Of a DNA stretch of 64,000 bases, positions 15,409 to 32,950 are shown piece after piece. This DNA is from Acetobacteraceae bacterium (GTDB taxonomy: Bacteria > Pseudomonadota > Alphaproteobacteria > Acetobacterales > Acetobacteraceae), in NCBI GenBank assembly GCA_965276815.1, contig CBDIBE010000010.1, positions 623,734-687,733 of the forward strand, given 5' to 3'. Both the position numbers and the translations under genes were made by a program. The notes under the pieces were generated by a model, which did no database searches, had not been told where the DNA came from, and saw only the letters and a list, made by a program, of their open reading frames with translations. Numbering within the stretch: position 1 is the first letter of the stretch; each line of letters starts with the position of its first letter.

Positions 15409-16431
15409 ATGCTGCACGGTCACGACCACGACGGTCACCATCACCATGACCACGACGATGATGGGGATGACGTCCCTGTCAGTTCGCCGGGCTCAAGGCG
15501 GCTCCGGGTCGCGCTGCGCTTTGCTTTTGCGGGAGTGATCGTGGCCGCCGCGGTGTTCGCATCGGCCTCGGTGATGGTGGGTGCGGGGGAGGCCTCGGTG
15601 ATCACCCGCTTCGGCGACCTGTCGCGCGTGCTGACCAAGCCGGGTCTGGCCTGGAAGCTGCCGACGCCGCTGGAAAGCGTCATCCCGGTCGATCTGCGGC
15701 TGCGCACCACCTCCACCGGCCTGCAGGATGTCGGCACCAAGGACGGGCTGCGCATCCTCGTGCAGGCCTATGTCGCTTGGCAGGTGCCCGCCGACCCCGC
15801 CCATATCCGGCAGTTCGTGCGCGCCGTGCGCAACGACCCGGACGAGGCGGCGCGCCAGCTCCGCAGCCTGGTCGGGGCGGCGCTGCAGGTGACGGCCAGC
15901 AGCTTCGAGCTTGCCGACCTGGTCGACACCGACGCGGCGCGGCGCAAGCTGCCCGAATTCGAGCAGCGCTTGCTCGCGCAGATCGGCCCTTCCGCCTTGG
16001 ACGTCTACGGCGTGCAAATCCAGCAGGTCGGGATCGAGCGGCTGACCTTGCCGGACGCGACCTTGGCCGCGACGGTCGCCCGCATGCGCGCCGAGCGCGA
16101 GACCGTGGCCGCCGCTCGCACGGCGGAGGGGCTGCGCGCGGCGGCGGAGCTGCGCTCGGCGGCGGCGCGCGACTCGCGGATCACCGTGTCGAACGCGCGG
16201 ACCGAGGCGGCCGATATCGAGGCTAAATCGCGCGAACAGGCGGCGGCGATCCAGGCGCACGCCTATCAGGCCGACCCCGACCTCTACACGATGCTCCGCT
16301 CGATGGACACGCTGGGCAGCGTGGTCGGCCCCAACACGCGGTTGATCCTGCGCACCGACGCGGCGCCGTTCGACGTGCTGGTCAAGCGGCCCGGCGCGGC
16401 CCCCGATCCGACGGCGGGCGCCAGCCGTTGA
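15409..16431 (+). CDS. SPFH/band-7 domain membrane protein (HflC-like) with an N-terminal His/Asp-rich tract
   Basis: The N-terminus is MLHGHDHDGHHHHDHDDDGDD, followed by one TM helix and then an SPFH domain (VITRFGDLSRVLTKPGLAWKLP...). The stop overlaps the next gene's start (ATGA). Confidence 0.75.
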   Translation: MLHGHDHDGHHHHDHDDDGDDVPVSSPGSRRLRVALRFAFAGVIVAAAVFASASVMVGAGEASVITRFGDLSRVLTKPGLAWKLPTPLESVIPVDLRLRTTSTGLQDVGTKDGLRILVQAYVAWQVPADPAHIRQFVRAVRNDPDEAARQLRSLVGAALQVTASSFELADLVDTDAARRKLPEFEQRLLAQIGPSALDVYGVQIQQVGIERLTLPDATLAATVARMRAERETVAAARTAEGLRAAAELRSAAARDSRITVSNARTEAADIEAKSREQAAAIQAHAYQADPDLYTMLRSMDTLGSVVGPNTRLILRTDAAPFDVLVKRPGAAPDPTAGASR

Positions 16432-17504
16432 GCGCCGCGGCGCACCCGGCCGAAGGACCGATCGCGCAGTCGATCGCGACCGGGTTCAAGGTGCTGTTCG
16501 CCGCGATCGCCGTGCTGGCGGTCGCCTGGGCCGCATCGAACTGGCGGCAAGTGCCGGCCGATGCGCAGGCGGTCGTGCTGCGGTTCCGCCGGATCGTCGC
16601 GGTCAAGCAAGCGGGGCTGACCCTGTCCTGGCCACGGCCGATCGGCAGCGTGGAGCTCATACCCGGCGAACAGCGGCTGCTGACGGTGCGCACGCAGTCC
16701 ATCGCCCGCGTTGGCGGCATGACCGATGTGTTCACCGCAGCCAACGAAGCGAACTTGCCCGAGGGCAGCGCCGAATACCTGACCGGGGATGGTGGCGTGG
16801 TGCTGCTGGGCGCCACACTCAGCTACCGGGTGACCGACGGCGCCGCGTACTACCTCGCCCAGACGCATGTCGCCCCGGCCTTGCAGCGGTTGTTCGCGGC
16901 GAGCGCCGTCGACGTGCTGGCCACCCGCAAGCTGGACGACGTGATGGTGGCCGAGCCGGTGCGCGCCAACGCCGACCTCCAGCGCACCGCGGACGCCGAG
17001 GCGAGGCGGCAGGCGTTGCGGGGCGACCTGGTCGAGGCCGTCAACAAACGCCTGGCGGATCTCGCCGCGCATGGCGCGTCCCTTGGCGTCGAGGTCGCGC
17101 GGATCGATTTGGAGCCGTCGCTGCCGCCGCAAGCCAAGATCGCCTACGACCAGGTCCTCGTCGCCGCGCAGATGGCCGAGCAGGGCATCGCCGACGCGCG
17201 CACCGAGGCCACACGCACGCTGCAAGTCGCCGACCGGGAGCGCGACCGGTTGCTGGAAGCCGCCAAGGCGTCGGCGAATGAGCGGGTGGACGAGGCGCGG
17301 TCGCGCACGGCGGCGATCCTGGCGGTCCGCGCGAGCATGACGCCGACGACGCGGAGCGCCGTGCTCGATCAGGTGTATCGCGACCAGCTCGCGGTGCTGC
17401 TGCAGAAGGTTGGCCGGGTCACCGCCGTGGATCCGCGCGGCGGAGCGCAGGTGATGCTGCCGGCGACGATTCCGCTCCCCGCGGCACCGAGTTTCAATCG
17501 ATGA
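16428..17504 (+). CDS. SPFH/band-7 domain membrane protein (HflK-like partner)
   Basis: 358 aa with one TM helix and an SPFH domain (VVLRFRRIVAVKQAGLTLSWPRPIG) plus a coiled-coil C-terminus. It is translationally coupled on both sides. Confidence 0.75.
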   Translation: MSAAAHPAEGPIAQSIATGFKVLFAAIAVLAVAWAASNWRQVPADAQAVVLRFRRIVAVKQAGLTLSWPRPIGSVELIPGEQRLLTVRTQSIARVGGMTDVFTAANEANLPEGSAEYLTGDGGVVLLGATLSYRVTDGAAYYLAQTHVAPALQRLFAASAVDVLATRKLDDVMVAEPVRANADLQRTADAEARRQALRGDLVEAVNKRLADLAAHGASLGVEVARIDLEPSLPPQAKIAYDQVLVAAQMAEQGIADARTEATRTLQVADRERDRLLEAAKASANERVDEARSRTAAILAVRASMTPTTRSAVLDQVYRDQLAVLLQKVGRVTAVDPRGGAQVMLPATIPLPAAPSFNR

Positions 17505-19471
17505 GCGTCACCGTCTCTGGCTCGCCGATCTTCGTCTCGCGGCGCGCCTCGCTGCTGGAGAGCGCCGAGCGGGCGATGCTGGCGATGCGCCTGACGGTGG
17601 CGATGGTGGCGGCCGGGCTGCTGCTGCTGGCGGTGCTGTGGCAGGCGGTGGTGCCCGGGCAGCAGGCGCTGTCGGACCTCATTGCCGGGGCCGCGGCCTT
17701 GCTCGTCGCGGTTCCCGTCATCACCTCGGCCTGGCACAGCCTGCGCCATCCAAGCCTGCATGGGGTGACCGACCGGCTGATCGCGGTGGCGCTGATCGCC
17801 GCCTGGGCGAGCGGCGACCTGATGACCGCGGCGGTGCTGCCGATCATCATGATCATCGGCCACGTGCTCGAGGAGCGCAGCCTGATCGGCTCGCGCGAGG
17901 CGATCGAGGCGTTGGCCAGCCTGACCGAGACGCACACGCGACGGCTCAACCCGGACGGTTCCTCCGAGGTGGTCGCGACCGCCGATCTGCGACCCGGCGA
18001 CGTGATCGAGCTGCTCGCTGGCGCCCGAGTGCCGGCGGATGGCGTCGTGCGGGCTGGAATGGCCAGCCTGGATATGGCGTCGCTGACCGGGGAGAGCGTG
18101 CCGGTCGATGTGGCGGAGGGTGATTCGGCGCTCGCCGGCTCGATCAACCTCGACGGGCGGCTCGAGCTCGAGGTGAGCCGGATCGGCGCGGAGACGGCAC
18201 TCGGAAAGATCATTGCACTGATGCGCACGGCCGAGCGCGCCAAGCCCCCGGTGGCGCGGCTGCTCGAGCGCTATGCCGGGCATTACCTGCTGCTGGTCCT
18301 GATGATCGCGGCCGGCACCTGGTTCGCGACCAACAACACGGCGGCGACGCTGGCCGTGCTGGTCGCGTCCTGCCCTTGCGCTCTGGTGCTGGCCGCGCCG
18401 GCCACCGCGATCGCTGCCATCGCCGTCGCGGCGCGGCACGGCATCCTGATCAAGGGCGCCGCGTTCCTCGAGCAATTGGCCGAGGTGAATTCGGTTATCT
18501 TCGACAAGACCGGCACGCTCACCACCGGCGAGCTGACCTTGATCGCGTTCCGCCCCTGCAACGGCGCCGATCCGCAAGCCGCGCTGCTTCTGGCAGCGGC
18601 GCTCGGTTCGGCGAGCAACCACCCGGTGAGCCGTGCGGCGGCCCGGTTGGCGCCTGAGCCGGTGCGGCCTGGCTTGGCAGAAGTGCGCGAGGCGAGCGGC
18701 TTCGGCGTCGCCGCACTGGCCGACGGCCAGGATGCAGCGCTTGGCCGCCCGGACTTCTTCCGCAATCTCGGCGTGTCGGCGCCCCCGCCGCCGCCGCATG
18801 ACGGGCCGATCGCCGGATTGAGCCTTGGCGGCGTGTTCCTGGGCTGGCTGTTGTTTGCCGACCGGCCGCGCCGGGAGGCCTCCGGCGCACTGGCCGAGCT
18901 GCGCGCGATGGGGCTGGAGCGGCAGGTCCTGCTGACCGGCGACCGCGAGGCGGTCGCGCATCGGATTGGCGCCGAGCTGGGCATTGCCGACATCAGCGCC
19001 GAGGCGCTGCCGGAACAGAAGATGGACCGGGTGCTGGGAGAGATCCGCTCCGGCTACCGGCCGCTGGTGGTCGGCGACGGCATCAACGACTCGCTGGCGC
19101 TCAAAGTGGGCGCGGTCGGGGTCGCGATGGGCGCGCGGGCGACCGACGTGGCCTTGGCATCGGCCGATCTGGTGCTGATGACCAGTGATCTGCGGCGGCT
19201 GGCGACCGCGCTGCGCCTCAGCCGGCGTTGCCGGCGGACCATTCACGTCAATGTCGCGATCGGGCTCGGCTGGACGCTGCTCCTCATCGCGCTGGCGGCG
19301 AGCGGGACGCTGGGGGCGGAGGGCGCGATCATCGCGGCGTTGCTGCATAATCTGAGCACCTTCCTCGGTCTCGGCAACGCTGGCCGGCTGCTGCTGTTCG
19401 ATGAGCCGCATGCGCCACCGGCTGACATGGAAACGTCGCACACGGCCGCTATCGCCTCTGCTATCGGCTGA
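17501..19471 (+). CDS. P1B-type heavy-metal translocating P-type ATPase lacking an N-terminal metal-binding domain
   Basis: 656 aa with TM CPC motif VASCPCALVLAAP, phosphorylation site DKTGTLTTG and hinge VVGDGINDSLAL. There is no HMA (GMxCxxC) domain. TM8 carries HNLST instead of the CopA-type MxxSS. Confidence 0.8.
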   Translation: MSVTVSGSPIFVSRRASLLESAERAMLAMRLTVAMVAAGLLLLAVLWQAVVPGQQALSDLIAGAAALLVAVPVITSAWHSLRHPSLHGVTDRLIAVALIAAWASGDLMTAAVLPIIMIIGHVLEERSLIGSREAIEALASLTETHTRRLNPDGSSEVVATADLRPGDVIELLAGARVPADGVVRAGMASLDMASLTGESVPVDVAEGDSALAGSINLDGRLELEVSRIGAETALGKIIALMRTAERAKPPVARLLERYAGHYLLLVLMIAAGTWFATNNTAATLAVLVASCPCALVLAAPATAIAAIAVAARHGILIKGAAFLEQLAEVNSVIFDKTGTLTTGELTLIAFRPCNGADPQAALLLAAALGSASNHPVSRAAARLAPEPVRPGLAEVREASGFGVAALADGQDAALGRPDFFRNLGVSAPPPPPHDGPIAGLSLGGVFLGWLLFADRPRREASGALAELRAMGLERQVLLTGDREAVAHRIGAELGIADISAEALPEQKMDRVLGEIRSGYRPLVVGDGINDSLALKVGAVGVAMGARATDVALASADLVLMTSDLRRLATALRLSRRCRRTIHVNVAIGLGWTLLLIALAASGTLGAEGAIIAALLHNLSTFLGLGNAGRLLLFDEPHAPPADMETSHTAAIASAIG

Positions 19472-19522
19472 GTGACGTAACGTTCCTGGTCCATCGTGCC
19501 GGGTTTTTGGAAGGGTATTTTT

Positions 19523-20197
19523 ATGAAGTCGAGCCATTGGGTCTTCGGGACGGCGCTTGCCACCGGTTTGGCCGCTTGGAGCGCGCAAGCGGGCGCCGCG
19601 GTGATGTTGACGACGAGCCTCTCGGCTTTTGAGGCCGCAGCCGGGCCCGCCCCGGTGATCAACACCCAGACCACCGGCCTGTTTGATCCGTTCGCGCTTG
19701 AGCTGCCGACGACGACTGCGATCCCGCTCGCCGACGGGTTCACGATCGGGCTCTCCTCGGCGGCGCAGGTGACGCAGCCGCAAGATGGCTATCCTTACCT
19801 GCTCAGCGACGGGTTCTCCGGCGATCTATTCATTCCGCAGGATGCGACGGGCAACCAGATCTCGACCGAGACGCTCTTCACCAGCGGCGCCGACGCGCTC
19901 GGCTTCGAGGTGGTGCCGTTCTCGAGCGACATCGGCGGGCCTTATAACATCACGGTGACGCTTGGCACGGGACAGAGCACGACGATCAGCCTGCCCGGCG
20001 CGGATTTCAACAACGGCGAGACCACGCCGGCCTTCTTCGGCTATGTCGGCGGTCCGGAGACCTCGCTGACCATCACCGCCACCGACCCGAACGGGCTTGC
20101 CTTCGGCAATTTCTACGAAGTGCCGGAGCCGGCCTCGCTGGTGCTGGTCCTGACCGGTGTCGGCCTGGTCGCCGGCCTGCGGCGCAGGAACGCCTGA
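19523..20197 (+). CDS. PEP-CTERM sorting-domain secreted protein (copy 2)
   Basis: It has a signal peptide MKSSHWVFGTALATGLAAWSAQAGA. The C-terminus is EVPEPASLVLVLTGVGLVAGLRRRNA. Confidence 0.8.
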   Translation: MKSSHWVFGTALATGLAAWSAQAGAAVMLTTSLSAFEAAAGPAPVINTQTTGLFDPFALELPTTTAIPLADGFTIGLSSAAQVTQPQDGYPYLLSDGFSGDLFIPQDATGNQISTETLFTSGADALGFEVVPFSSDIGGPYNITVTLGTGQSTTISLPGADFNNGETTPAFFGYVGGPETSLTITATDPNGLAFGNFYEVPEPASLVLVLTGVGLVAGLRRRNA

Positions 20198-20559: not shown

Positions 20560-20658
20560 CTTTGCCGGAACCTCACGCCGATCTAACCACGGCCTCACGG
20601 ACCCTGCGTTAACCGTTTGCTAAGCTGAGTCGCTTACTCATGGTAGTTGCAAGCGCCC

Positions 20659-22533
20659 ATGTCGGTCAAAATCAACGAAAACCCCGTTGTCCCGTTTTCT
20701 GCACAGCCGATTGCGCTGTCGACGCGGTTTGCGGTGACCGGTTCGGGAAGCGACCCTGCCTATCTCGTGGTCGATGGCCTCGATCGCGACGAGTACACCG
20801 TGAATGCCACGGGGGCGACGGGTGAGCTGACTGGAGATGGGAGGAGCTTGGGCTTCACCTCGCTCGGCGGCGACGCGCGCGGGGCCGGCATCGTCTTCAC
20901 CTACCAAGTTTCGACCGGACGCTACTACAGCGCGAATTTCGGCTACCTCGACCAGCTCGCCTACACGCCATCGACGAGTGTGGGCGATGTGACCGACCTG
21001 TGCTTCTGGGGCACCAACAACCTGTCTCTCGCGAACGAGTATGGCGGCAATGCCGAGTCGATGATGCAGGTCGATGCGTCTGGCTATCTCGGTTCGGTCA
21101 CGGTCGCGACGGAGCCGGGCTATAGCGCGACCGTTCCCGCGCAAGCCACCCCGGGCTCGATTGCCGCGGTTGCCGAGACCTTTGTTGGCCAGAGCTGGAA
21201 CATTAATGGCTGTTGGGTTTTGACCAGTGTGATTTCCGCCGAGGCCGGGGCGTCGCTTCCCGTCCAGAGCACGGCTGACATCGCTGGGCAGGCCAATGGC
21301 GAGTGGTTCGTCGCCTATGATGGCCCGGCCGGCGAAACCGGGAATTGGCAGTCGCTGGTCACGACCGGCGAGATGGTCGGGTTCGAGACGTCGAGCGGAA
21401 CCGGGCACATCACGACAATCGTTTCCGGTTCCGGCAGTTCGGCGATGGTGGTGGACAACGCCGCGTTCGAGAGCGCCTACGGCCAGGTGGTCAACTCGGC
21501 CAATGACGGCTCGCCGGATGACATTACGATCTCAGCGCCGCATGCCGCTTCGCAGGAATTCTCCGGCGTCAACGCCGACACGGTGGTGATCTACGAGCTC
21601 GACACGCCCGTCGTGACGACGAACAGCACCGGCCTCACGCTGACGCCGGACAGCGCGGACAGTCTCGGCTCGCTGTTCTCGGCGGCGGATCCCGAAGGCA
21701 AGACCGTCACCACCTATCAGTTGTACGACACGGACCCCGGCGGCGCGCTCGTCGTCAGCGGGACGGACTTCAACGCGAATTCGACCTCGACGGCCGTGAC
21801 GGTGAGTTCGCTCGCGCAGGTGAGCCTACAGGCTGGGGCCGCGGACAATACCGGCTCGATTGATGTCCGGGCATCCAACGGCTCTTACTGGGGAGACTGG
21901 ACGTCGCTCGGCGTCACCGTCGCAGGATCGGCGCCGGCGTCCTCCCCTGGGACGCCCGCGCCCAGCACGGCAGACAATTTCAATTGGACCGATATCGTGA
22001 CCGACTCATCCGGCAGCGGTGCGGGCGAGGCGTATTCCGGCTCGGTTGCCGGCATCCAATCGGAATATACTTGGTCTGGAGCGGATAGCGCCGCCATCGC
22101 GGCCCAGGTCGCAAATGTCTACCTCGTGGGCGGCCCGGGCGGGGACGCGCTCGAGGCTTATGCGGGCAGCAACGTGCTGGATGGCGGCACCGGGTCGAAC
22201 TTCCTGATCGGCGCGACAGGCGCTGACGGCGGAACCGACACCTTCTTTGTCGATGGCCGCGGCGACGCCCCGTTTTGGGACAGCTTGGTCAATTTCCACG
22301 AGGGCGATGCGGTGACGTTGTGGGGCTTCGCGCCGGGAAGCACGATGGCCTGGGCACCCAATGCGGGCGCACCGGGCTATCAGGGTGCGACGCTTGACGT
22401 CTCGCTGGCGAACGCCACGACCGGGTCGGTCACTTTCGCCGGGATCAGCTTGTCACAGGCGCAAGCCAATTTCGTCACCAGTTCCGGCACCTCCGGCGGA
22501 GTGCCTTACCTTGAGGTCCAATTCACTGCGTGA
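20659..22533 (+). CDS. Large Thr/Ser/Gly-rich extracellular protein with C-terminal RTX-like (GGxGxD) calcium-binding repeats; candidate type I secretion substrate
   Basis: About 624 aa with no N-terminal signal peptide. The C-terminal region is GGPGGDALEAYAGSNVLDGGTGSNFLIGATGADGGTDTF. Confidence 0.65.
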   Translation: MSVKINENPVVPFSAQPIALSTRFAVTGSGSDPAYLVVDGLDRDEYTVNATGATGELTGDGRSLGFTSLGGDARGAGIVFTYQVSTGRYYSANFGYLDQLAYTPSTSVGDVTDLCFWGTNNLSLANEYGGNAESMMQVDASGYLGSVTVATEPGYSATVPAQATPGSIAAVAETFVGQSWNINGCWVLTSVISAEAGASLPVQSTADIAGQANGEWFVAYDGPAGETGNWQSLVTTGEMVGFETSSGTGHITTIVSGSGSSAMVVDNAAFESAYGQVVNSANDGSPDDITISAPHAASQEFSGVNADTVVIYELDTPVVTTNSTGLTLTPDSADSLGSLFSAADPEGKTVTTYQLYDTDPGGALVVSGTDFNANSTSTAVTVSSLAQVSLQAGAADNTGSIDVRASNGSYWGDWTSLGVTVAGSAPASSPGTPAPSTADNFNWTDIVTDSSGSGAGEAYSGSVAGIQSEYTWSGADSAAIAAQVANVYLVGGPGGDALEAYAGSNVLDGGTGSNFLIGATGADGGTDTFFVDGRGDAPFWDSLVNFHEGDAVTLWGFAPGSTMAWAPNAGAPGYQGATLDVSLANATTGSVTFAGISLSQAQANFVTSSGTSGGVPYLEVQFTA

Positions 22534-22571
22534 CGAGCGGACGCAAGCGCGGATGAGAAACTGACATAGGA

Positions 22572-22690
22572 TCACATCTTCTCTTTTAAGCCCGCCTTCA
22601 GCAGCCACCAATTCACCGGGAAGGCGGTCAGGAAACCGCAGATCATGGCGAGCTCATCATGAACCAGAACAGCCAGCTCGGGATCACCCC
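22572..22690 (-). pseudogene. C-terminal remnant of a DUF4396-like small membrane protein
   Basis: The frame ends ...DPELAVLVHDELAMICGFLTAFPVNWWLLKAGLKEKM*, resembling the DUF4396 C-terminus (PVNxWLI). There is no room for the rest of the gene because cueR ends at 22684. Confidence 0.3.
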
Positions 22691-23070
22691 GCCAACTCCT
22701 CGATGATCGGGCAATCCGGCCGCTCATCGCCGCTGCAGGAATCGGCGAGGTGGCGGAGCGTCCGGCACATGGCTTGGATCTGCTCCGCCTTGGCCTCGAG
22801 CGCGGCGACATGCGCCAAAGTCAGCCGCTTCACGTCGGCGCTGGCCCGGCGGCGGTCGCGCCACAGCGCCAACAGCTCGCGCATCTCGTCCATGGAGAAG
22901 CCGAGATCGCGCGCCCGGCGGATGAACCGCAGCGTGTGGATGTCCGCCTCGCCGAAGCGGCGATAGCCGGCGCCGCTTCGCTCGGCGGCCGCGAGCAGGC
23001 CGACGCTTTCGTAGTAGCGGATCATCTTGGCGGAAACGCCGCCGGCCTGCGCGGCCTGGCCGATATTCAT
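22684..23070 (-). CDS. cueR: MerR-family Cu(I)-responsive transcriptional regulator (CueR/HmrR type)
   Basis: It has the MerR HTH (MNIGQAAQAGGVSAKMIRYYESVGLL) and the C-terminal metal-binding loop CSGDERPDC. It overlaps the copA stop. Confidence 0.85.
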   Translation of the reverse strand: MNIGQAAQAGGVSAKMIRYYESVGLLAAAERSGAGYRRFGEADIHTLRFIRRARDLGFSMDEMRELLALWRDRRRASADVKRLTLAHVAALEAKAEQIQAMCRTLRHLADSCSGDERPDCPIIEELAG

Positions 23071-25290: not shown

Positions 25291-25337
25291 GCCATTGTGG
25301 GAGGGTGCAGAACCGCGCCAAGAACCCGGAGAGTCCT

Positions 25338-25535: not shown

Positions 25536-25538
25536 CCC

Positions 25539-26474
25539 TCAAACCACGCTGTCCGGCCGCAGCATGCAGTCGCGCGCGGTCTCCGGCGTCTCTAGCTGCA
25601 CGGTCGCGTGTCCGATGCCGAAGCGCTCCCGCACCTCGTGGGTGATCCGGAGCAGCAAGGCCCCGTCATTGGTCTGATCCTGCCGCACCAGGTGCGCGGT
25701 CAGCGCCGTCTCGGTCGTGCTCATGCCCCAGATATGCAGATCGTGCACTTCGCTGACGCCGGGCAGCGAGCGCAGGTAGGCGTCGACTTTGGCCTGATCG
25801 ATCCCCGGCGGCACCGCGTCAAGGGAGAAGTTCACGGAGTCGCGCAGCAGCGACCAGGTGCCGACCAGGATGACCACGCTGAGGACGAGGCTGACCACCG
25901 GGTCCACCCAAAGCCATCCGGTCCACAGGATCACGAGGCCTGCGACGGCGACGCCCAGCGTGAGCATGGCGTCGGCCGCCATGTGCGTGAAGGCGGCGCG
26001 GATGTTCAGATCGCCCTTCCGGCCAGACATGAACAGCCAGGCGGTAACCCCGTTCACGAGGACGCCCACCAGCGAGACGATGACGATCACCAAGCCGCCG
26101 GTCGGCGCCGGGTCGATCAGGCGCTGGATCGCCTCCCAGGCGATCCCGCCGGTCACGACTAGCAGCACCATCGCGTTCGCCAGCGCCGCCAGGATCGAGG
26201 AGCGGCGCAGGCCGTACGTGTAGGTCCCTGTCGGGCGTTTCTGGCTGAGCCAGGCGGCGAGCCACGCACCGAGCAACCCGGCCACGTCGCCCAGATTGTG
26301 CCCGGCATCCGCCAGCAGCGCCACCGACTGCACTGAAATGCCCCAAAACGCCTCCGCCGCCACGTAGGCGGCGTTCAGCCCGACTCCGATGGCGAAGGCG
26401 CGGCCAAAATCCACCGGCGCATGATGATGCCCGCCGGGTCCATGATCGTGGTGATGCGCGTGATCGTGCGGCAT
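25539..26474 (-). CDS. Cation diffusion facilitator (CzcD-like) with a His-rich N-terminus
   Basis: 311 aa with the N-terminus MPHDHAHHHDHGPGGHHHAP, 6 TM helices and a CDF signature in TM2 (SVALLADAGHNLGD). Confidence 0.85.
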   Translation of the reverse strand: MPHDHAHHHDHGPGGHHHAPVDFGRAFAIGVGLNAAYVAAEAFWGISVQSVALLADAGHNLGDVAGLLGAWLAAWLSQKRPTGTYTYGLRRSSILAALANAMVLLVVTGGIAWEAIQRLIDPAPTGGLVIVIVSLVGVLVNGVTAWLFMSGRKGDLNIRAAFTHMAADAMLTLGVAVAGLVILWTGWLWVDPVVSLVLSVVILVGTWSLLRDSVNFSLDAVPPGIDQAKVDAYLRSLPGVSEVHDLHIWGMSTTETALTAHLVRQDQTNDGALLLRITHEVRERFGIGHATVQLETPETARDCMLRPDSVV

Positions 26475-26509
26475 GCGCCCGTTATAGACGTTGCTCGGGC
26501 GGACCGTAA

Positions 26510-29500
26510 CTACTCGCCGGCTTGGGTTTCGGGTTGGCGCTTATGGAACAGGCGTGCGCTGCGTTGCGACAGGAACTCGAAGGCGATGAACAGGACCGGC
26601 ACGAAAATGATGCCGAGCAGGGTCGCGAACACCATCCCCCCGAACACCGTCGTGCCGATCGAGACCCGCGCGCCAGCGCCGGCCCCGGAAGCCAGCACCA
26701 GCGGCAGCACGCCGAAGATGAAGGCGAGCGCCGTCATCATTACGGCGCGGAACCGGGCTTGCGCGCCGTCCAGCGCCGCCTGGCGCACGCTTTCGCCGCT
26801 TTCGAGCCGCGTCTTGGCGAATTCCACGATCAGGATCGCGTTCTTCGCTGCCAGGCCGACCAGGAGCACCAGCCCGATCTGCCCATAAATGTCCATCGCC
26901 AGTCCGCGCACGAGGAGCGCCACCAGCGCGCCCAGCGCCGCGACCGAGACGGACAGGATCACCGAAACCGGCAGCGAGAAGCTCTCGTATTGGGCGACCA
27001 GGAACAAATAAGCGAAGATGAGCGAGAAGATGATGGCGTATGCGCCGGTGCTGCCCTCGAGCTGCTGCTGGTATGACAGGCTGGTCCAGTCATAGCCATA
27101 GCCCTGCGGCAGGAACTGCGCCGCAAGCTGCTCCATCGCCGCGATCGCCGTGCCGGAGCTCCCGCCCGGCGCGGGTTGCCCGATGATCTCCACGGCCGGA
27201 TAGAGGTTGTAGCGGGTGACCGTATCGGGGCCGAGCGTGGTGGACACGGTGACCAGGCTGCGCATCGGCACCAGCGCGCCATTCGCGCTCTTGACGTAAA
27301 GGTTTTGGATGTCGGCGACCGTCCCGCGGTATTTGGACTGGTCCTGCACGATCACCTGGAACACCTGGCTCTGCAGGTTGAATTGGTTGACGTATTGCGA
27401 GCCGAGATGCGCCTGCATCTCGGCAAAGATCTCCGAAGGCTGCACGCCCATCAGCGCGGCACGCGTGCGGTTCACCGTGACTTCGACCTGCGGCTGGTTG
27501 GCTGTGAAGGTCGTGAAGACGCTGCTCAGCGCGGGGTTCTGGTTGGCGCGATAGATGAAACCCCGCGCGGTCGCGGCCAGGTCGCTGATGCTCTGGCCGG
27601 CGCGTGCCTCGAGCTCGAAATCAAAGCCGCCGGTGCGGCCGACGCCGGGGATCGCCGGTGGGTTGAACGCCGCGATCGAGGCGGAAGGCAGCGCATTCAA
27701 GCCTGGCTGCAGCGCCGCGATAATGCCGGTGACCGATTCCCGGGCAGAGGTTCGGACGCTCCAGTCCTTCAGCACGACGATGAGCGCCCCGGAGTTGGCC
27801 TCGTTGGTGCCCGAGATCAGGCTGAAACCCGACAACTCGATAACGTTCGCGACGCCTTCATCCTTGCCGGCCAAGGTTCCCACTTGGTGCACCACGGACT
27901 GCGTCCGCTCGAGCGACGCGCCGTTCGGCAGCGTGATGTTGACGAAGAAATAGCCCTGGTCCTCCTCGGGGATAAAACCCGAGGGTACGATGCGGAACAC
28001 GAACCCGGCCAGCACGCAGACCGCCGCGAGGCCGATCAGCCCCACGACGAGCCGCCGTCCGAGCCAGGCGACGGCGCCGCCGTAGCGGTCCCGGACCCAA
28101 TCGAAGCCGTTATTGAACCAGCGGAACAAGGTGAAGCGCTGCCGCTTTGGCGGCCGCAGGAACAGCCGGCAGAGCGCCGGGCTGAGGGTGAGCGCGTTGA
28201 CGGCGGAGATCAGCACCGAGGCCGAGATGGTGACCGCGAACTGCCGATAGAGCTGGCCGGTGATTCCCGGCAGAAAGCCCACCGGCGCGAAAACCGCCAC
28301 CAGGACGAGCGTCGTCGCGATCACCGGGCCGGTGATCTGGTCCATCGCCCGCTCGGTCGCCTCGGCGACCGGCATCTTCGGGTTTTCCTCGAGATTGCGG
28401 GTGACGTTCTCGACCACCACGATCGCGTCGTCGACGACCAGCGTGATCGCCAGCACGATCGCGAACAGGTTGACCGTGTTGGCGCTGAACCCGAACGCGT
28501 AAAGGATCGCGAACACGCCGATCAGCGAGACCGGGATCGCGACGACGGGGATCAGGGTGGCCCGCCAGTCCTGCAGGAACAGGAACACGACCGCGACGAC
28601 GATGAGGAACGTCATGGCCAGCGTGATGACGATCTCGTGCACCGTGGCGGTGACGAATTTCGTCGAGTCGTAGACGATCTCGTATTTCAGCCCAGCCGGG
28701 AACGACTTGGCGAGCTGCTCCATCTGGGTGCGGACGGCCTGCGCGACCTGCAGCGCGTTGGAACCAGGAAGCTGGTAGATCGCCAGCGTCGCCGAGGGCT
28801 GGCCGTTGAGCGCGGAATAGGCGGTGTATTGCTGGGCGCCGAGCTGCACGTCGGCCACGTCGCCGATCCGGACCAAGCCGCCATTCGCGCTCGCCTTGAT
28901 GACGATGTCCTTGAACTGCTGCACGGTATTCAGCCGGCCCTGAGCGACGATGGTGAGCTGCTGCTGTTGCTGAGTGGTGATCGGCGGCGCGCCGACTTGC
29001 CCGGCGGCGGCCTGGATGTTCTGTCCGGCGATCGCGGCCACGACGTCCTGCGAGGTGATGCCGAACGCGGTCATCTTCACCGGGTCCATCCATACCCGCA
29101 TGGAGTATTTCAGGTCGGATAGGTCGGTCGCCTGGCCGACGCCGGGAATGCGCGCCAGCGGGTAGGACAGGTTGATGTCGGTGTAGTTCGAGATGAAGAT
29201 CTGGTCGTATTTGTTGTCCGGCGAGTAAAGGTTCACCGCCAGCACGAAGTCGCTGGATTTTTTCGCGACCGTCAGGCCCTCGGCTGAGACCGTCGCCGGC
29301 AATTGGGCCGTCGCCAGCGAGACGCGGTTCTGCACGTCGACCGCGTCGATGTCCTGATTGGAGCCGAGCTCGAAGGTCACGGTCAGCGAGTAGGTCCCGG
29401 CGCTGGAACTCGTGCTGCTGTAATAGAGCGCGTGCTCGACGCCGTTGACCTGCTCCTCGACCGGTTCGGCGATCGTCTGCTGGATGACGTTGGCGTCCGC

Positions 29501-29656
29501 ACCCGGGTAACTCGCCGAGACGGCCACCGTCGGGGGGGCGAGGTCGGGGTATTGGGCAATCGGGATGACCCAGAGCGAGACCAGCCCGGCGATCAGGATC
29601 ACCAGCGCGATGACGATGGCGAATTTGGGCCGCGCGATGAAGAAGCGGGAAATCAA
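26510..29656 (-). CDS. RND efflux permease, HAE1/AcrB-like
   Basis: 1048 aa. The N-terminus MISRFFIARPKFAIVIALVILIAGLVSLWVIPIAQYPDLAPPTVAVSASYPGADA is closer to AcrB than to CzcA. Confidence 0.85.
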   Translation of the reverse strand: MISRFFIARPKFAIVIALVILIAGLVSLWVIPIAQYPDLAPPTVAVSASYPGADANVIQQTIAEPVEEQVNGVEHALYYSSTSSSAGTYSLTVTFELGSNQDIDAVDVQNRVSLATAQLPATVSAEGLTVAKKSSDFVLAVNLYSPDNKYDQIFISNYTDINLSYPLARIPGVGQATDLSDLKYSMRVWMDPVKMTAFGITSQDVVAAIAGQNIQAAAGQVGAPPITTQQQQQLTIVAQGRLNTVQQFKDIVIKASANGGLVRIGDVADVQLGAQQYTAYSALNGQPSATLAIYQLPGSNALQVAQAVRTQMEQLAKSFPAGLKYEIVYDSTKFVTATVHEIVITLAMTFLIVVAVVFLFLQDWRATLIPVVAIPVSLIGVFAILYAFGFSANTVNLFAIVLAITLVVDDAIVVVENVTRNLEENPKMPVAEATERAMDQITGPVIATTLVLVAVFAPVGFLPGITGQLYRQFAVTISASVLISAVNALTLSPALCRLFLRPPKRQRFTLFRWFNNGFDWVRDRYGGAVAWLGRRLVVGLIGLAAVCVLAGFVFRIVPSGFIPEEDQGYFFVNITLPNGASLERTQSVVHQVGTLAGKDEGVANVIELSGFSLISGTNEANSGALIVVLKDWSVRTSARESVTGIIAALQPGLNALPSASIAAFNPPAIPGVGRTGGFDFELEARAGQSISDLAATARGFIYRANQNPALSSVFTTFTANQPQVEVTVNRTRAALMGVQPSEIFAEMQAHLGSQYVNQFNLQSQVFQVIVQDQSKYRGTVADIQNLYVKSANGALVPMRSLVTVSTTLGPDTVTRYNLYPAVEIIGQPAPGGSSGTAIAAMEQLAAQFLPQGYGYDWTSLSYQQQLEGSTGAYAIIFSLIFAYLFLVAQYESFSLPVSVILSVSVAALGALVALLVRGLAMDIYGQIGLVLLVGLAAKNAILIVEFAKTRLESGESVRQAALDGAQARFRAVMMTALAFIFGVLPLVLASGAGAGARVSIGTTVFGGMVFATLLGIIFVPVLFIAFEFLSQRSARLFHKRQPETQAGE

Positions 29657-29803
29657 ATCCTGTTACTCACGCTCAGCCATGCAAGAGTGATCAACGCACC
29701 CGTCATCGCGAGCTGCGGAGCGGCGTGGCGATCCAGCGCGACACGAAACGACGCGGGCATGGATCGCTTCGTCGCTCCGCTCCTCGCAACGACAATCAGG
29801 GTA

Positions 29804-30904
29804 CTAGGTCCCATTGGTGGTGGCCGGCGGCGCGGGCGGGGCGGTGCTGGCGTCCACGGCCTCGCCGGGATGCACCTTCTGGATGCCCTCGGTAATCACC
29901 CGTTCGCCGCCCTTCAGGCCGGATTGCACGATGTAGTTCTGCCCGATCTGCCGGCCTAGCTTGATCCGTTGCTCCTGAACCTTGTTGTCCTGGCCGACGA
30001 TCAGCACGAACGGCCCGTTCGCGTCATTCTGCACCGCCTGGACCGCGACGACCGGCGCGTTCTGTGGCTTCGCCGGCGCGACCTCGACGCTGACGAAGGA
30101 GCCCGGGATCAATGTGCCGTCAGAGTTAGCGAAGCGGCCCCAGACGGTGAGCGTTCCGGTCGACGCATCGACCTGGTTGTTCAGGAACTCGATCGTGCCG
30201 GCTTCCTTGTAGATCGAGCCGTTGGAAAGCTGCAGGTGCAGCGCGACCGTGGCGGCGAGCTCTTGGGCGGTCTTGCCGGTTTGCTGCTCGATGGAGAGCA
30301 TCTCGGCGTCGGTGGGGGCGAAATAGACGCGGATCGGGTCGATCTGCACGATGGTGGCGAGCGGGCCCGACGATGAGTCGACGAGGTTGCCCGCGGTGAT
30401 GTTGGCGCGGCCGATCCGCCCGGTGATCGGCGCGGCAACCGTGGTGTAACTCAGGTTTATGGCGGCCGCCTCCAGCGCGCCGCGCGCCGTGTCGACCTGC
30501 CCCGATGCCTGGTCGCGCGCCGCCGTGTCTTGCTGGATCTGCTGCTGGCTGATCGCCAGATTGCCCGCCTGGGTGTCGCGCTGCAGGTTCATCTGCGTGT
30601 TCTGCAGCGTGGCTTGGGCCTGCGTGAGCGAGCCTTGCGCCTGCAGCACCGCGGCCTGGTAAGGTCCTTTCTGCAGCTCGAAGAGCAGTTGCCCCGCCTT
30701 GACCGTGCTGCCCTCGGTAAAGTCCACCTTGTCGATGAAAGCCTGCACGCGCGCGACCACGTTGACCATTTGGATCGCTTGTACCTGGCCGACAAAAGTC
30801 TGCACCGGTGCCACGTTCTGGACTTGCACGGGCGCGACGACGACGGCGGGGGCGGCACCGGCCAGAAGGACCAACGGCAGGATCGCGACTCTCGGCTGCT
30901 TCAT
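29804..30904 (-). CDS. RND periplasmic adaptor (membrane fusion protein, AcrA-like)
   Basis: 366 aa with a lipoprotein-like N-terminus, coiled-coil hairpin and beta-barrel regions. It lies upstream of the RND gene. No outer-membrane factor gene is in the window. Confidence 0.8.
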   Translation of the reverse strand: MKQPRVAILPLVLLAGAAPAVVVAPVQVQNVAPVQTFVGQVQAIQMVNVVARVQAFIDKVDFTEGSTVKAGQLLFELQKGPYQAAVLQAQGSLTQAQATLQNTQMNLQRDTQAGNLAISQQQIQQDTAARDQASGQVDTARGALEAAAINLSYTTVAAPITGRIGRANITAGNLVDSSSGPLATIVQIDPIRVYFAPTDAEMLSIEQQTGKTAQELAATVALHLQLSNGSIYKEAGTIEFLNNQVDASTGTLTVWGRFANSDGTLIPGSFVSVEVAPAKPQNAPVVAVQAVQNDANGPFVLIVGQDNKVQEQRIKLGRQIGQNYIVQSGLKGGERVITEGIQKVHPGEAVDASTAPPAPPATTNGT

Positions 30905-31051
30905 TGGGTTCCCTGCAACGCGTTTCCGGTTTGCACAGGGGGCAAGCTAGGCCGTTATCCGACCGGTCAGCAATATTCACTTCGCGCCCAGCCCGGTTCC
31001 GGCTACATCGCGAGCACGGCGCTGGCCGCCCCCGTTCGAGTGTGAGGCGTT

Positions 31052-32950
31052 TTGGACACACTGCAGCAATTCGCCGGGCCAACGACCCCGATTGGCGCCG
31101 GCGTCGACCTCCGGCGTGGCATCCGGCTGCTCCGGCTGCTGGCATTCCTGTTCGGCGGCGGGGCGCTTGCACTGGTTGTGCTGCTTGCCTTGTTCCCGAC
31201 TTTGGACATGGCGGTCGAGGCGCGGTCGAGCGGGCTGGCCGGCATTACGCTCGCCGGACTTCTGCTGGCGCTCTCGGGCATAATGGCGGCGCTGCCGATC
31301 GCGACGTGCCGCCTGGCCTGCGCGGAAGAGCGCCGGCGGCAGCGTCTGCCGCGTCTGCTCCGCTTCCGCCCGGTCGACCCGGCGCGGCGGCTCTCCTGGA
31401 TGGCACGGCGTCCGCAGGGCATCATCATCCCGGTGATCTGCGTGGGCGCCGGCATTGCGGTCTGGCTGCTGCGTCCGCAGATGCCCGGCGCTTTGGCGCC
31501 GCAAGCGATGATCCTCGGCGCCGGGGCCATCGTGCTCGGCTTCCCGCTCCTGGTCGCGCAGAAGCTGATGGCCGCCGTTCCGCGTCACGAATTGGTGGAG
31601 GCCGACGCGCTTTCGGCCCTGCTGCGAGTGCCGGTGATCATCGTGCCGCTGGCCGGCGTGGTGGACATCGGGGCCGCGGAGGGGTTCGGCTACGCCCGTC
31701 CGGTCATGGCCGTGCTCGCCGTGTTTATCGGCGTTGTCGCGGCCGAGTTGGGCTTGCGCGCACTCGGCAATTGGTTCCTGCCGCCGCCAACGCCCGCCGA
31801 GGCGAGGGCTTCCGTCACCAGCCTGGCGGCGCGTCTGCTGCATGACGGGTCGGTCGGCGAGGGCCTGGCCGCACCGATCCGGGCGCAGCTCGGCATCGAC
31901 TTCTCGCGGAGCTGGGCGCTGCGCTACGCGCGTTCGGCCGCGCTGCCGGTCGGGCTGGGGTTGGCGCTGCTCGCCTGGGGTCTGACCGGAGCGGCGCTGA
32001 TCCCGCTGGACCAGCGCGGCGTGTACGAGCGGTTCGGCAAGCCGGTCGCGGTCTGGCAGCCCGGCGCGCATCTTGGCCTGCCCTGGCCGCTCGGCCGGGT
32101 CCGTATGGTCGAGCTTGGGGTCGTGCACACAATGACCCTTGGGGGCACCGAGCCGCCGGACACCGTGTCGCGCGCCGAGGATCCGCCGCCGGACTCGGCG
32201 AACCGGCTTTGGGACAAGGTACATCCGGCCGAGACTTCCTACATCATCGCGTCGGTCGAGACCTCGGGCGCGCAAAGCTTTCAGAGTGTCGATGCCGACC
32301 TCAAGGTGCTGTATCGCACGGGCCTGGACGACGCATCGGCGCTGCGGGCCGCTTATGGGGTGACATCGGCGGACCAGCTCGTGCGCAGCGAGACGGGGCG
32401 GCTGCTCGCCCGGGTGTTCGCCGGGCGGCTGTTGAATGACGTGATCGGCACCGACCGCGAGACGCTGGCCGAAAATTTGCGCCGGGACCTGCAGGCCGAG
32501 CTGGACCGGCGCCACAGCGGCATCGAGGTCATGCAGGTGGTGATCGAGGCGATCCATCCGCCGCTCGCCGCCGCGCAGGCCTATCACAACGTGCAGGCGG
32601 CCGAGATCGTGGCGAACACGGCCATTTCGACGGAACGCGGGCGCGCCGTGGCCAGCGCGGCGATGGCGCGCCAGACGGCGACCGGGATTACCGACGCGGC
32701 GAAGGGCGCGGCTTCGTCCACGGTTGCCGACGCGAACGTCCTGCTGCGCAACTTCACCGCTGACCAGCAGGCCGCAGCGGTGGGCGGCGAGGCGTTCCTG
32801 CTGGAGCGCTATTTTGCCAATTTGAGCATGGCGCTGCTGAAATCGCCGCTGGTCATCGTCGACCATCGCCTGCAGGGTCCGACGGCGCCGGTGATCGACC
32901 TGCGCTCGTTCGGCGCGCCGGGCGTTACCCGGTCAGGCGACGAGGACTAG
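31052..32950 (+). CDS. Polytopic membrane domain fused to a C-terminal SPFH/band-7 (HflK-like) domain
   Basis: 632 aa. The first ~300 aa have about 8 predicted TM helices. The remainder is an SPFH domain (QRGVYERFGKPVAVWQPGAHLGLPWPLGRVRMVEL) with a coiled-coil tail. Confidence 0.7.
   Translation: MDTLQQFAGPTTPIGAGVDLRRGIRLLRLLAFLFGGGALALVVLLALFPTLDMAVEARSSGLAGITLAGLLLALSGIMAALPIATCRLACAEERRRQRLPRLLRFRPVDPARRLSWMARRPQGIIIPVICVGAGIAVWLLRPQMPGALAPQAMILGAGAIVLGFPLLVAQKLMAAVPRHELVEADALSALLRVPVIIVPLAGVVDIGAAEGFGYARPVMAVLAVFIGVVAAELGLRALGNWFLPPPTPAEARASVTSLAARLLHDGSVGEGLAAPIRAQLGIDFSRSWALRYARSAALPVGLGLALLAWGLTGAALIPLDQRGVYERFGKPVAVWQPGAHLGLPWPLGRVRMVELGVVHTMTLGGTEPPDTVSRAEDPPPDSANRLWDKVHPAETSYIIASVETSGAQSFQSVDADLKVLYRTGLDDASALRAAYGVTSADQLVRSETGRLLARVFAGRLLNDVIGTDRETLAENLRRDLQAELDRRHSGIEVMQVVIEAIHPPLAAAQAYHNVQAAEIVANTAISTERGRAVASAAMARQTATGITDAAKGAASSTVADANVLLRNFTADQQAAAVGGEAFLLERYFANLSMALLKSPLVIVDHRLQGPTAPVIDLRSFGAPGVTRSGDED

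Follow-up and report, generated by a model that had tools for sequence, protein, structure and literature searches.

HflK and HflC of Escherichia coli form a heteromeric cage for a dedicated membrane-protein client, FtsH (PDB 7vhp/7vhq/7wi3/9cz2). In Mycobacterium tuberculosis, PacL1 and the P1B ATPase CtpC form an 'effluxosome' (PMC9374683, PMC13043812, PMC13460109). The stability and clustering of CtpC require PacL1, whose DLHDHDH motif binds Zn (PMC9374683), and the combination of CPC with H-N-x-(S/T) has been reported as the hallmark of this mycobacterial Zn exporter (PMC13460109). The window analysed here, 64,000 nucleotides of an Acetobacteraceae genome, encodes three SPFH proteins (TM-SPFH, SPFH_A and SPFH_B) and a P1B ATPase that lacks a metal-binding (HMA) domain, and these four genes are a single module. 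It is apparently novel to the literature, in which no paper describing a three-SPFH/P1B ATPase module was found.

Gene identities come from Pfam and NCBIfam profile searches, and all the genes listed in a first-pass annotation of this DNA were present where it had placed them. SPFH_A (15409..16431, + strand, 340 aa; Band_7, 108.5 bits) is an HflC-like and SPFH_B (16428..17504, + strand, 358 aa; Band_7, 39.6 bits) an HflK-like single-pass SPFH protein, and the ATPase follows at 17501..19471 (+ strand, 656 aa; TIGR01525, 492 bits). Neighbouring genes share 4 nt at both junctions (TTGA for SPFH_A/SPFH_B and ATGA for SPFH_B/ATPase). Upstream lies an exported calcineurin-like metallophosphoesterase (13775..15259, + strand, 494 aa; Pfam Metallophos, E 3.3e-10), whose N-terminus, MFAGRLQARFSIVVMVLAGVAGHAQA, reads as a Sec-type signal peptide; downstream lies a PEP-CTERM-anchored secreted protein (19496..20197, + strand, 233 aa; PEP-CTERM 21.8 bits against a cut-off of 20.7, with a TIGR02595 match). 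TM-SPFH (31052..32950, + strand, 632 aa; Band_7 at residues 317-531) sits 11.5 kb downstream of the rest of the module.

In other genomes TM-SPFH is the first gene of the module: of 61 evaluable loci, 58 have the order TM-SPFH, SPFH_A, SPFH_B, ATPase, with all four genes on the same strand. The loci compared, all from MAGs, belong to Alpha-, Beta- and Gammaproteobacteria, Acidobacteriota and Planctomycetota; carriers include Acetobacteraceae, Azospirillaceae, Stellaceae, Caulobacteraceae, Hyphomonadaceae and Beijerinckiaceae, as well as Luteibacter, Steroidobacteraceae, Nevskia, Janthinobacterium and Bryobacteraceae. The linkage is reciprocal: independently sampled ATPase homologues are accompanied by the same three SPFH genes in three of three cases. 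The linkage of SPFH genes to metal export proposed in the first-pass annotation is thus conserved for the P1B ATPase and not for RND or CDF pumps, and the SPFH genes that seemed to recur beside several efflux systems all belong to one module with one putative client ATPase. No metal-responsive regulator is conserved beside the module across the loci examined, so metal induction of the module is hypothetical. The PEP-CTERM gene is an accessory in a minority of cases; 16 of 82 loci, and 14 of the 58 canonical ones, have a homologue on the downstream side of the ATPase.

The best PDB sequence match of SPFH_A is HflC (E 3.8e-19) and that of SPFH_B is HflK (E 4e-6); TM-SPFH also matches HflK. None of the three reaches the HflK/HflC equivalog cut-offs, SPFH_A scoring 100.5 bits on the hflC model TIGR01932, under the cut-off of 134.4. 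SPFH_B aligns with the C-terminal half of TM-SPFH over 286 aa at 26% identity; the two are HflK-like paralogues, and the predicted structure of that half of TM-SPFH can be superposed on subunits of the HflK/C cage. From hydropathy and the positive-inside rule, all three SPFH domains are predicted to be periplasmic. In SPFH_A, a His-rich N-terminal tail, MLHGHDHDGHHHHDHDDD, is predicted to be cytoplasmic and precedes a TM helix (residues 39-57) and the periplasmic SPFH domain with its coiled coil. The tail holds at least five His in 49 of 65 orthologues (~75%) and fewer than three in 14; a feature missing from about a quarter of them cannot be indispensable to how the core module works. TM-SPFH begins with six hydrophobic helices ahead of Band_7, which bears out the annotated fusion of a polytopic N-terminal domain to the third SPFH protein. 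These are followed by a conserved cytoplasmic linker (FLPPP...GIDFSRSWALRY), an anchor helix (TM7), the periplasmic HflK-like SPFH domain and a long coiled coil. The 6-TM N-domain, unmatched in Pfam, may represent a new family. Its predicted fold bears a weak, non-significant likeness to the membrane domains of CDF transporters such as YiiP and ZnT/SLC30 (Foldseek E of at least 0.15). Several features set it apart from a CDF: Pfam gave no Cation_efflux signal even with matches accepted at E <= 10, hhalign with the CDF encoded in the window was negative, TM2 and TM5 lack the conserved Asp/His of a DD-HD transport site, and the C-terminal CDF dimerisation domain is missing.

The ATPase carries (S/A)CPC in TM4, N584 and W591-T592 in TM5, and H616-N617-x-S-T in TM6, residues that are invariant or nearly so across 66 orthologues. 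Profile searches detected no HMA domain at its N-terminus, and a CxxC motif occurs in one of 67 orthologues. By sequence, its closest solved structures are ZntA and sCoaT (249 and 246 bits), and K693 and D714 of ZntA correspond to T592 and H616. These residues suggest a CtpC/P1B-6-like pump with the CtpC-type motif present in part only: the published N-X18-H-N spacing is not kept, as the invariant TM5 Asn lies 31 residues before the His.

The position of TM-SPFH beside the MFP-RND-CDF genes is a lineage-specific rearrangement. The split is confined to the window and two close relatives (L083 and L084), the latter with the same intervening block, and TM-SPFH is intact despite it (85% and 77% identity to its counterparts in these relatives); the first gene of the module would have moved downstream in these genomes. 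A promoter-like element of ~57 nt, TTCGCG-N17-TAAATC containing an internal dyad, lies upstream of SPFH_A (15323..15378, + strand), and a second copy lies upstream of the displaced TM-SPFH (30966..31023, + strand). The local alignment of the two copies scores 38, a value reached by none of 1000 shuffles (mean 17, maximum 30) and none of 976 random genomic 156-mers (maximum 32), and there is a sigma-70-like site at 15305-15333. The element upstream of TM-SPFH is kept in L083 (score 50) and L084 (score 86); it is missing in the remaining 80 loci and has no match in Rfam. Given a copy before each half, the two halves are probably co-expressed.

The block between the halves (20647..30904) lies outside the module. 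It comprises an RTX-like secreted ORF of 628 aa, a DUF4396 remnant, cueR (22684-23070, - strand; TIGR02044, 167 bits against a cut-off of 147), copA (23067-25229, - strand; HMA domain present), copZ (25305-25535, + strand, divergent to copA), a ZitB-like CDF gene (25539-26474, - strand, assigned by profile search), an RND gene (26510-29656, - strand) and an MFP gene (29804-30904, - strand). The RND pump clears the threshold of the multidrug model NF000282 (1275.8 bits, cut-off 1250) and falls below the CusA/CzcA cut-off (341 bits against 701); it is therefore AcrB-like, as the first-pass annotation had it. The same annotation was right that the MFP/RND pair has no adjacent outer-membrane factor, its flanks being the CDF gene and the divergent TM-SPFH. 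The supposed REP-like element at the end of TM-SPFH is a perfect hairpin (32947..32992; predicted to fold into 21 bp and a loop of 4 nt; dG -41.9 kcal/mol, z = -9.6) that overlaps the TM-SPFH stop codon. As its arms are single-copy within the 64 kb and it is placed between TM-SPFH and a convergent CoA-transferase III gene (33049-34200, - strand, ending at 33049), it reads as a bidirectional terminator and not as a dispersed REP.

We incline, with guarded confidence, to the view that the module builds a dedicated HflK/C-type hetero-oligomeric scaffold around a divalent-metal pump. By analogy, the SPFH proteins most plausibly act as scaffold or microdomain organisers. HflC-like SPFH_A, HflK-like SPFH_B and TM-SPFH would form a joint assembly in the manner of HflK and HflC, a ring or cage anchored in the membrane and facing the periplasm, and the 6-TM N-domain and conserved cytoplasmic linker of TM-SPFH could tether the client in the membrane. 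We infer that this client is the co-encoded CPC/H-N-x-S-T P1B ATPase, which would most likely export Zn2+ or a divalent ion akin to it (Mn, Co or Cd, for example). For a pump without a metal-binding domain of its own, the His-rich tail of SPFH_A might provide metal capture or regulation in trans, and the scaffold may stabilise, cluster or insulate the pump. The copper, CDF and RND genes between the halves would be unrelated passengers.

The first-pass annotation had instead seen a coherent metal-homeostasis island, with a general export microdomain serving CopA, the CDF and the AcrB-like RND pump as well. These genes do lie next to one another in the window and in two of its close relatives, and only 147 bp separate TM-SPFH from the divergent MFP-RND-CDF genes. 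However, copA, cueR, copZ, CDF and MFP genes are found within 10 kb of the module at none of 80 loci from other genomes, and RND similarity there amounts to two weak matches (22-25% identity), so that the expected co-occurrence of the fused TM-SPFH with RND and CDF genes did not hold. The RND pump is of the multidrug HAE1 type, copA and copZ have their own CueR-type dyads in what looks like an ordinary, independent copper regulon, and the element upstream of TM-SPFH is common to the SPFH-ATPase operon and not to the RND operon. GC is 0.65-0.72 throughout, with no compositional sign of a foreign island; with unrelated units side by side and no such signature, the 'island' is a juxtaposition, and a microdomain shared by all these pumps is very improbable. 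What is left of the microdomain proposal is the scaffold for one pump, argued by analogy with HflK/C-FtsH and PacL-CtpC. It is scarcely credible that mere descent or hitch-hiking has left the SPFH genes beside the ATPase, with no functional coupling: gene order alone never proves interaction, but order, strand and tight spacing are kept at 36-58% protein identity in at least four phyla, start and stop codons overlap, and the N-domain family occurs almost exclusively in fused, module-linked form.

In another reading, possible though rather unlikely as a whole, the ATPase would be a low-rate pump that brings Mn, Fe, Zn or Co into the periplasm as a cofactor, not for detoxification, and an SPFH vault would confine the metal over the pump to load Sec-exported apo-enzymes. 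The first candidate enzyme would be the co-encoded dinuclear metallophosphoesterase. This is a frequent accessory gene: of 66 loci with enough upstream sequence, 33 have a Metallophos homologue immediately before TM-SPFH. One also lies directly upstream of the module in three of three loci reached from the ATPase side, and a second phosphoesterase family, PF04185, is found near the module in L002 and L087. The HflK/C-type cages among the matched structures enclose a periplasmic volume, the missing linked metal-sensing regulator fits a housekeeping or assembly role, and metallation of secreted proteins has reportedly been proposed for CtpC-type pumps, from work on CtpC and Mn. However, Metallophos is absent within 10 kb from half of the loci, including nearly all of those outside Rhodospirillales/Acetobacteraceae, so metallation cannot be what the core module does everywhere. 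His-rich cytoplasmic tails are more usual in metal buffering or detoxification systems, and entry of the phosphoesterase into the cage is a supposition. It is more doubtful still that the trio acts mainly in proteolytic quality control, recruiting or restraining an FtsH encoded elsewhere to govern turnover of the ATPase or other membrane proteins. Sequence and fold both place the SPFH subunits nearest to HflC and HflK, the only heteromeric SPFH cage of bacteria with a defined structure among the matches is HflK/C-FtsH, and the PacL literature leaves open whether that scaffold shields its pump from degradation. Yet all three proteins miss the equivalog cut-offs, no ftsH, hflX or hfq gene is linked to the module at any locus inspected, the strict linkage is to the ATPase, and neither the extra 6-TM domain nor the His tail has a counterpart in HflK/C.

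As a dedicated scaffold for a metal pump, the module resembles HflK/HflC most closely in its SPFH subunits, which find their best sequence and fold matches there. Both have an HflC-like and HflK-like pair with N-terminal anchor, periplasmic SPFH domain and long coiled coil, encoded side by side by overlapping genes, and the module is likewise proposed to have a dedicated membrane-protein client. The module differs in having three subunit types instead of two, a 6-TM domain on one subunit and a His-rich tail on another, no hfq-hflX context, and a P1B ATPase in place of FtsH as the linked client. The known HflK/C client is a protease with a large periplasmic domain, and a P1B pump offers almost no periplasmic mass for a cage to hold, which speaks against the scaffold model. 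In stomatin-channel and NfeD-stomatin pairs (for example QmcA-YbbJ, 8z5g; stomatin-AQP1, 9zd2), which are among the fold matches, SPFH oligomers cap or enclose a specific membrane partner; unlike the module, these are homo-oligomeric, cytoplasm-facing rings with other partners and no linkage to a P-type ATPase.

The ATPase shares CPC with ZntA (P1B-2, PDB 4umv), of which Lys693 and Asp714 are replaced by Thr and His, and the TM6 His with sCoaT/CzcP (P1B-4, PDB 7qbz), where HEGST stands in place of HNLST; the SPC motif of P1B-4 and the Glu after its His are missing. In contrast to both, the pump itself carries neither an HMA domain nor a His/Cys-rich region at its N-terminus. PacL, a small DUF1490 protein (~90 aa) with a single TM helix, is confined to the cytoplasmic side, lacks an SPFH domain and forms foci independently of flotillin, whereas the module has three periplasm-facing SPFH proteins; PacL also binds an N-terminal domain of CtpC that the module ATPase lacks, and the N-X18-H-N spacing of CtpC is not shared. 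Common to the two are a membrane scaffold gene upstream in the same operon, a P1B ATPase with CPC and H-N-x-(S/T), and an optional His/Asp-rich cytoplasmic metal-binding motif on the scaffold (DLHDHDH in PacL1, HGHDHDGHHHHDH in the module). With a pump that would likewise be stabilised and clustered, and an accessory metallochaperone activity, the module may be the SPFH-based counterpart of the mycobacterial PacL1-CtpC effluxosome.

By gene order across genomes, the three SPFH genes belong to one module, and its fourth member is a P1B-type ATPase. SPFH_A (15409-16431, +), SPFH_B (16428-17504, +) and the ATPase, which lacks an HMA domain (17501-19471, +), follow each other directly, flanked by genes for an exported metallophosphoesterase (Metallophos; 13775-15259, +) and a PEP-CTERM protein (19496-20197, +). 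The third SPFH gene (31052-32950, +) encodes TM-SPFH, a 632-aa fusion of a membrane domain to an SPFH domain. Searches detect 185 homologues of TM-SPFH, each about 600-650 aa long, and the first two contexts examined both read Metallophos, TM-SPFH, SPFH (340 aa), SPFH (~350 aa), P1B ATPase (~650 aa) and PEP-CTERM. A scan of one genome per species gave 179 relatives, 80 loci of which were compared by tblastn with 13 proteins of the window. Of the 61 loci that extend far enough downstream, 58 have the order TM-SPFH, SPFH_A, SPFH_B, ATPase on a single strand. Median identity to the window proteins is 46% for TM-SPFH, 66% for SPFH_A, 46% for SPFH_B and 69% for the ATPase, the last being 58-82% identical across phyla. 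Sampling from the ATPase side gave the same picture, as three of three homologues, chosen solely for long contigs, carry the complete set. The carriers comprise Acetobacteraceae and other Alphaproteobacteria, Luteibacter, Steroidobacteraceae, Nevskia, Janthinobacterium, Bryobacteraceae and one Planctomycetota MAG. All those found are metagenome-assembled genomes (L003-L082 are mostly labelled Acetobacteraceae), and the 80 loci include no cultured isolate. Three loci deviate from this order: L018 has a truncated gene, and L039 and L062 are from Acidobacteriota. In L039 (Terriglobia) the fusion gene follows the ATPase, whose frame is broken into several ORFs (4800-6970); this ATPase is either a pseudogene or a product of long-read assembly errors, and the variant order was set aside on account of the frame breaks.

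The first-pass annotation had described a metal-homeostasis island and suggested that SPFH proteins organize membrane microdomains for metal export there. Every gene that it named is present by ORF listing and profile searches, and the GC content is uniform across the region. Between the ATPase and TM-SPFH lie a 628-aa ORF (20647-22533, +), cueR (22684-23070, -), copA (23067-25229, -), a divergent copZ (25305-25535, +) and genes for a CDF (25539-26474, -), an RND pump (26510-29656, -) and an MFP (29804-30904, -). Relatives of copA, cueR, copZ, CDF, MFP and the 628-aa ORF occur in none of the 80 loci (tblastn), and the RND has only two matches there, both weak (22-25% identity). The expected co-occurrence of TM-SPFH with RND and CDF genes thus fails, whereas linkage of the SPFH genes to a metal pump, also anticipated, is strong for the P1B ATPase. 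A broader microdomain serving the RND, CDF and CopA is therefore not supported by co-occurrence in these loci, and annotation should keep the copper, CDF and RND genes functionally separate from the SPFH genes.

The neighbouring genes have features of their own. The RND pump is AcrB-like, as first proposed: it passes the HAE1 multidrug model (NF000282, 1275.8 against a cut-off of 1250) and fails the HME model for CzcA/CusA (TIGR00914, 341 against 701). The MFP, this RND and the ZitB-like CDF are arranged head to tail on one strand (25539-30904, -) with only 35 nt from the RND stop to the CDF start, so that the multidrug-type pump and the zinc CDF may be co-transcribed; the order MFP-RND-CDF recurs in L084, the locus of a close relative. 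The copA-copZ intergenic region (25230-25304) contains two CueR/MerR-type dyads, CTTCCCATCGTGGGAAG and TTGACCTTGCCATTGTGGGAGGG, as expected of an ordinary, self-contained CueR copper unit. Downstream of cueR, within an ORF overlapping its 3' end, are the last ~24 codons of a DUF4396 gene (22584-22655, -); the intact gene (227 aa) at the corresponding position of L084 indicates that it was largely deleted in the window. The 628-aa ORF is Ser/Thr/Gly-rich, has a similar ORF at the matching position in L084 and probably encodes a secreted protein; it has no significant Pfam match and a sub-threshold RTX nonapeptide signal near its C-terminus.

In the window the fusion gene is absent from its usual slot between Metallophos and SPFH_A and sits 11.5 kb downstream of the ATPase. 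In two close relatives with 85% and 77% TM-SPFH identity (L083 and L084) it likewise adjoins MFP-RND, and in L084 it is preceded by DUF4396-cueR-copA-copZ-CDF-RND-MFP as in the window. The rearrangement is thus fixed in a small clade, with TM-SPFH still intact. The intergenic sequences in front of SPFH_A (149 bp) and TM-SPFH (147 bp) have a stretch of ~57 nt in common (window 15323-15378 and 30966-31023), and the same promoter-like element precedes TM-SPFH in both relatives (L083 3449-3488; L084 9546-9604). It has the form TTCGCG-N17-TA(A/C)ATC, with a spacer dyad AGCCCGG-TT-CCGGCT, and its alignment score of 38 was reached by none of 1000 dinucleotide shuffles and none of 976 random genomic windows. 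The pattern is found in none of the other 80 loci; it is thus clade-specific rather than a family-wide operator. It could be the operator of some regulator. Rfam gave no match to the element, and a riboswitch or other known RNA in the leaders was rejected, the search at E <= 1 returning two chance-level matches only, elsewhere within 13-34 kb. In the simplest history, promoter and gene would have been duplicated to the new site and the coding part then lost at the old one, which would leave both halves of the module under copies of one control region.

A genuine hairpin (dG -41.9 kcal/mol) marks the end of the TM-SPFH gene, but its first designation as a REP-like element does not stand. The only exact copies of its 14-nt arm in the 64 kb are its own two arms, so it is single-copy in the window, not a dispersed palindromic element, and its location between convergent genes is terminator-like. 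A second perfect hairpin (33010-33045), CGTCCTGACCG-ATT-CCGGTCAGGACG, adjoins the convergent CoA-transferase gene at its stop codon; two strong hairpins therefore separate this gene pair.

All three SPFH proteins exceed the Band_7 gathering threshold (PF01145, 23.6 bits), with 108.5 bits for SPFH_A, 39.6 for SPFH_B and 59.9 for TM-SPFH. SPFH_A is nearest to HflC (E 3.8e-19), and SPFH_B and TM-SPFH are nearest to HflK. None is HflC or HflK proper: SPFH_A scores 100.5 against the equivalog cut-off of 134.4 (TIGR01932), and SPFH_B and TM-SPFH score 57.9 and 61.3 against 159.4 (TIGR01933). SPFH_B and the C-terminal half of TM-SPFH are paralogues (26% identity over 286 aa). Each of the three proteins has an N-terminal anchor with positive charges on its N-side, so that the SPFH domains should face the periplasm, as in HflK/C. 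The N-terminus of SPFH_A forms a His-rich tail, starting MLHGHDHDGHHHHDHDDD; of 65 orthologues, 49 have at least five His among the 45 residues that precede the TM helix, and 14 have fewer than three.

TM-SPFH is modelled with confidence by AlphaFold2 from a 61-sequence alignment (pLDDT 83.8 for the full protein; 89.1, with pTM 0.86, for the N-domain alone). The model consists of six TM helices, a cytoplasmic linker, an anchor helix and an SPFH alpha/beta domain (strands 314-423) followed by a 74-residue coiled-coil helix (505-578). The linker, GIDFSRSWALRY, includes G281-x-D283-F-S-R286-S-W-A, which is better conserved than any other motif in the family. In Foldseek the C-terminal half matches HflK/C (E 1.7e-11), as well as the cage subunits stomatin, prohibitin and erlin. 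For the six-TM N-domain, Pfam gives no match even at E <= 10. In an exhaustive search across 1.84 billion representatives it falls into at least ~150 clusters, and among the matches listed nearly all full-length clusters are fusions of 600-690 aa. Its top Foldseek match is YiiP, at a non-significant E of 0.15. Membership of the CDF family (PF01545) was rejected, since Pfam at E <= 10 and hhalign against the CDF of the window are negative and TM2 and TM5 contain no Asp or His that is conserved; the modelled resemblance is a possible lead at the level of the fold.

The ATPase is of the P1B type (TIGR01525, 492 bits against a cut-off of 346), with DKTGT at 335, TGES at 196, GDGIND at 525 and SCPC at 290. 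It has no HMA domain, and a CxxC motif occurs in only one of 67 orthologues. Its closest solved relatives are ZntA and sCoaT. Invariant or nearly so in 66 orthologues are C291-P292-C293, N584, W591-T592, H616-N617-x-S-T and N626. By published subtype motifs (PMC13460109), P1B-2 pumps combine CPC with a TM5 Lys (K693) and a TM6 Asp (D714), and usually carry an HMA or His/Cys-rich domain at the N-terminus. The ATPase passes TIGR01512 (446 bits) and has the CPC, but T592 and H616, both conserved in 65 of 66 orthologues, occupy the positions of ZntA Lys693 and Asp714, which together with the missing HMA domain excludes it from P1B-2 (ZntA/CadA). Nor is it P1B-4 (CzcP/CoaT), defined by SPC in TM4 and HEGxT in TM6: its TM4 reads (S/A)-C-P-C with an invariant first Cys, and its TM6 H-N-L-S-T, with Asn for Glu in 66 of 66. 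CPC with H-N-x-(S/T) is the hallmark of the Zn exporter CtpC, which clusters with P1B-6, and in such pumps the TM6 H-N-x-(S/T) forms part of the defining motif N-X18-H-N-x-(S/T) (PMC13460109). Compared with it, the ATPase has the CPC and H616-N617-x-S619-T620 but not the N-X18 spacing, as no Asn lies 19 residues upstream of His616 and the invariant TM5 Asn584 is 31 upstream.

Clustering of all flanking ORFs revealed no conserved regulator; the recurrent neighbours are limited to Metallophos, spurious ORFs that overlap this gene, and genes for PEP-CTERM or small secreted proteins. PADLOC models matched none of the seven proteins tested, and an anti-phage defence system was rejected. In two loci a PF04185 phosphoesterase (phospholipase C/acid phosphatase type) lies near the module in addition to Metallophos (L002 4610-6766, -; L087 1-1437, +), which hints at a link with phosphate scavenging.

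The strictly conserved operon of overlapping genes, the one HflC-like and two HflK-like subunits, the pump without a metal-binding domain and the His-rich tail on the scaffold together suggest one membrane machine. Most likely, the module encodes a hetero-oligomeric scaffold of the HflK/C type, with a CtpC-like divalent-metal exporter as its dedicated client. HflC-like SPFH_A and the two HflK-like subunits would assemble around the pump, and the His-rich cytoplasmic tail of the scaffold would supply metal capture in trans; the assembly itself, the transported metal and the direction in which it moves are all predictions from sequence. The main rival is that the module serves to metallate exported enzymes. 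The Metallophos gene speaks for this role: of the 66 loci that extend far enough upstream, 33 carry it immediately before TM-SPFH according to an HMM built from its homologues, and the 33 that lack it are mostly outside Acetobacteraceae. In a more elaborate and rather improbable form, a closed periplasmic SPFH vault over the pump would act as a private chamber for metallation or sequestration, serving exported apo-enzymes, for example the co-encoded metallophosphoesterase. Pumped ions would be released into this protein-walled compartment, and the N-domain would be a degenerate, CDF-derived element gating or docking the pump. If true, this would be the first bacterial SPFH cage with a transporter, not a protease, as client, and a structural answer to how periplasmic enzymes get the right metal. 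The canonical HflK/C role of regulating FtsH would fit the HflK/C-like subunits but is less likely, because ftsH, like hflX and hfq, is absent from every annotated locus and from the recurrent neighbours. The dedicated exporter scaffold remains the preferred reading.

For most bacterial SPFH proteins no client is known, and to our knowledge HflK/C-FtsH is the sole heteromeric SPFH cage that is well defined. The module is a genetically hard-wired candidate for an SPFH-client pair, with a P-type metal pump as the client. Searches of full texts turned up no description of an SPFH, HflK or HflC module with a P-type or P1B ATPase or with metal efflux, and an ATPase or transporter partner is mentioned neither in a survey of prokaryotic SPFH operons (PMC2636767) nor in one from 2026 on the SPFH proteins of Pseudomonas aeruginosa. 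The restriction of the carriers to MAGs may explain why the module is unstudied. If confirmed, it would offer a compact four-gene system for structural work on how an SPFH cage affects a transporter.

The module can be rated as joining two known ideas, an SPFH scaffold with a dedicated client and the effluxosome-like organization of a P1B pump. Functionally, it comes closest to PacL1-CtpC of Mycobacterium tuberculosis, in which the scaffold is encoded upstream of CtpC and is needed for stability and clustering of the pump, and its DLHDHDH motif binds Zn and matters at high Zn (PMC9374683; PMC13460109). The likeness is limited to the His/Asp motif and the operon logic. PacL is a small single-TM DUF1490 protein with cytoplasmic Glu/Ala repeats, whereas the upstream genes of the module encode SPFH proteins of 340-632 aa, and no module protein matches DUF1490. 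As PacL lies outside the SPFH family and forms flotillin-independent foci, the relation is one of analogy, not homology. To this precedent the module adds a three-subunit scaffold, a new six-TM domain and a putative metal-binding tail on the scaffold rather than on the pump. Confirmation would mean that effluxosomes assembled on scaffolds are not peculiar to mycobacteria but have arisen repeatedly from unrelated scaffolds.
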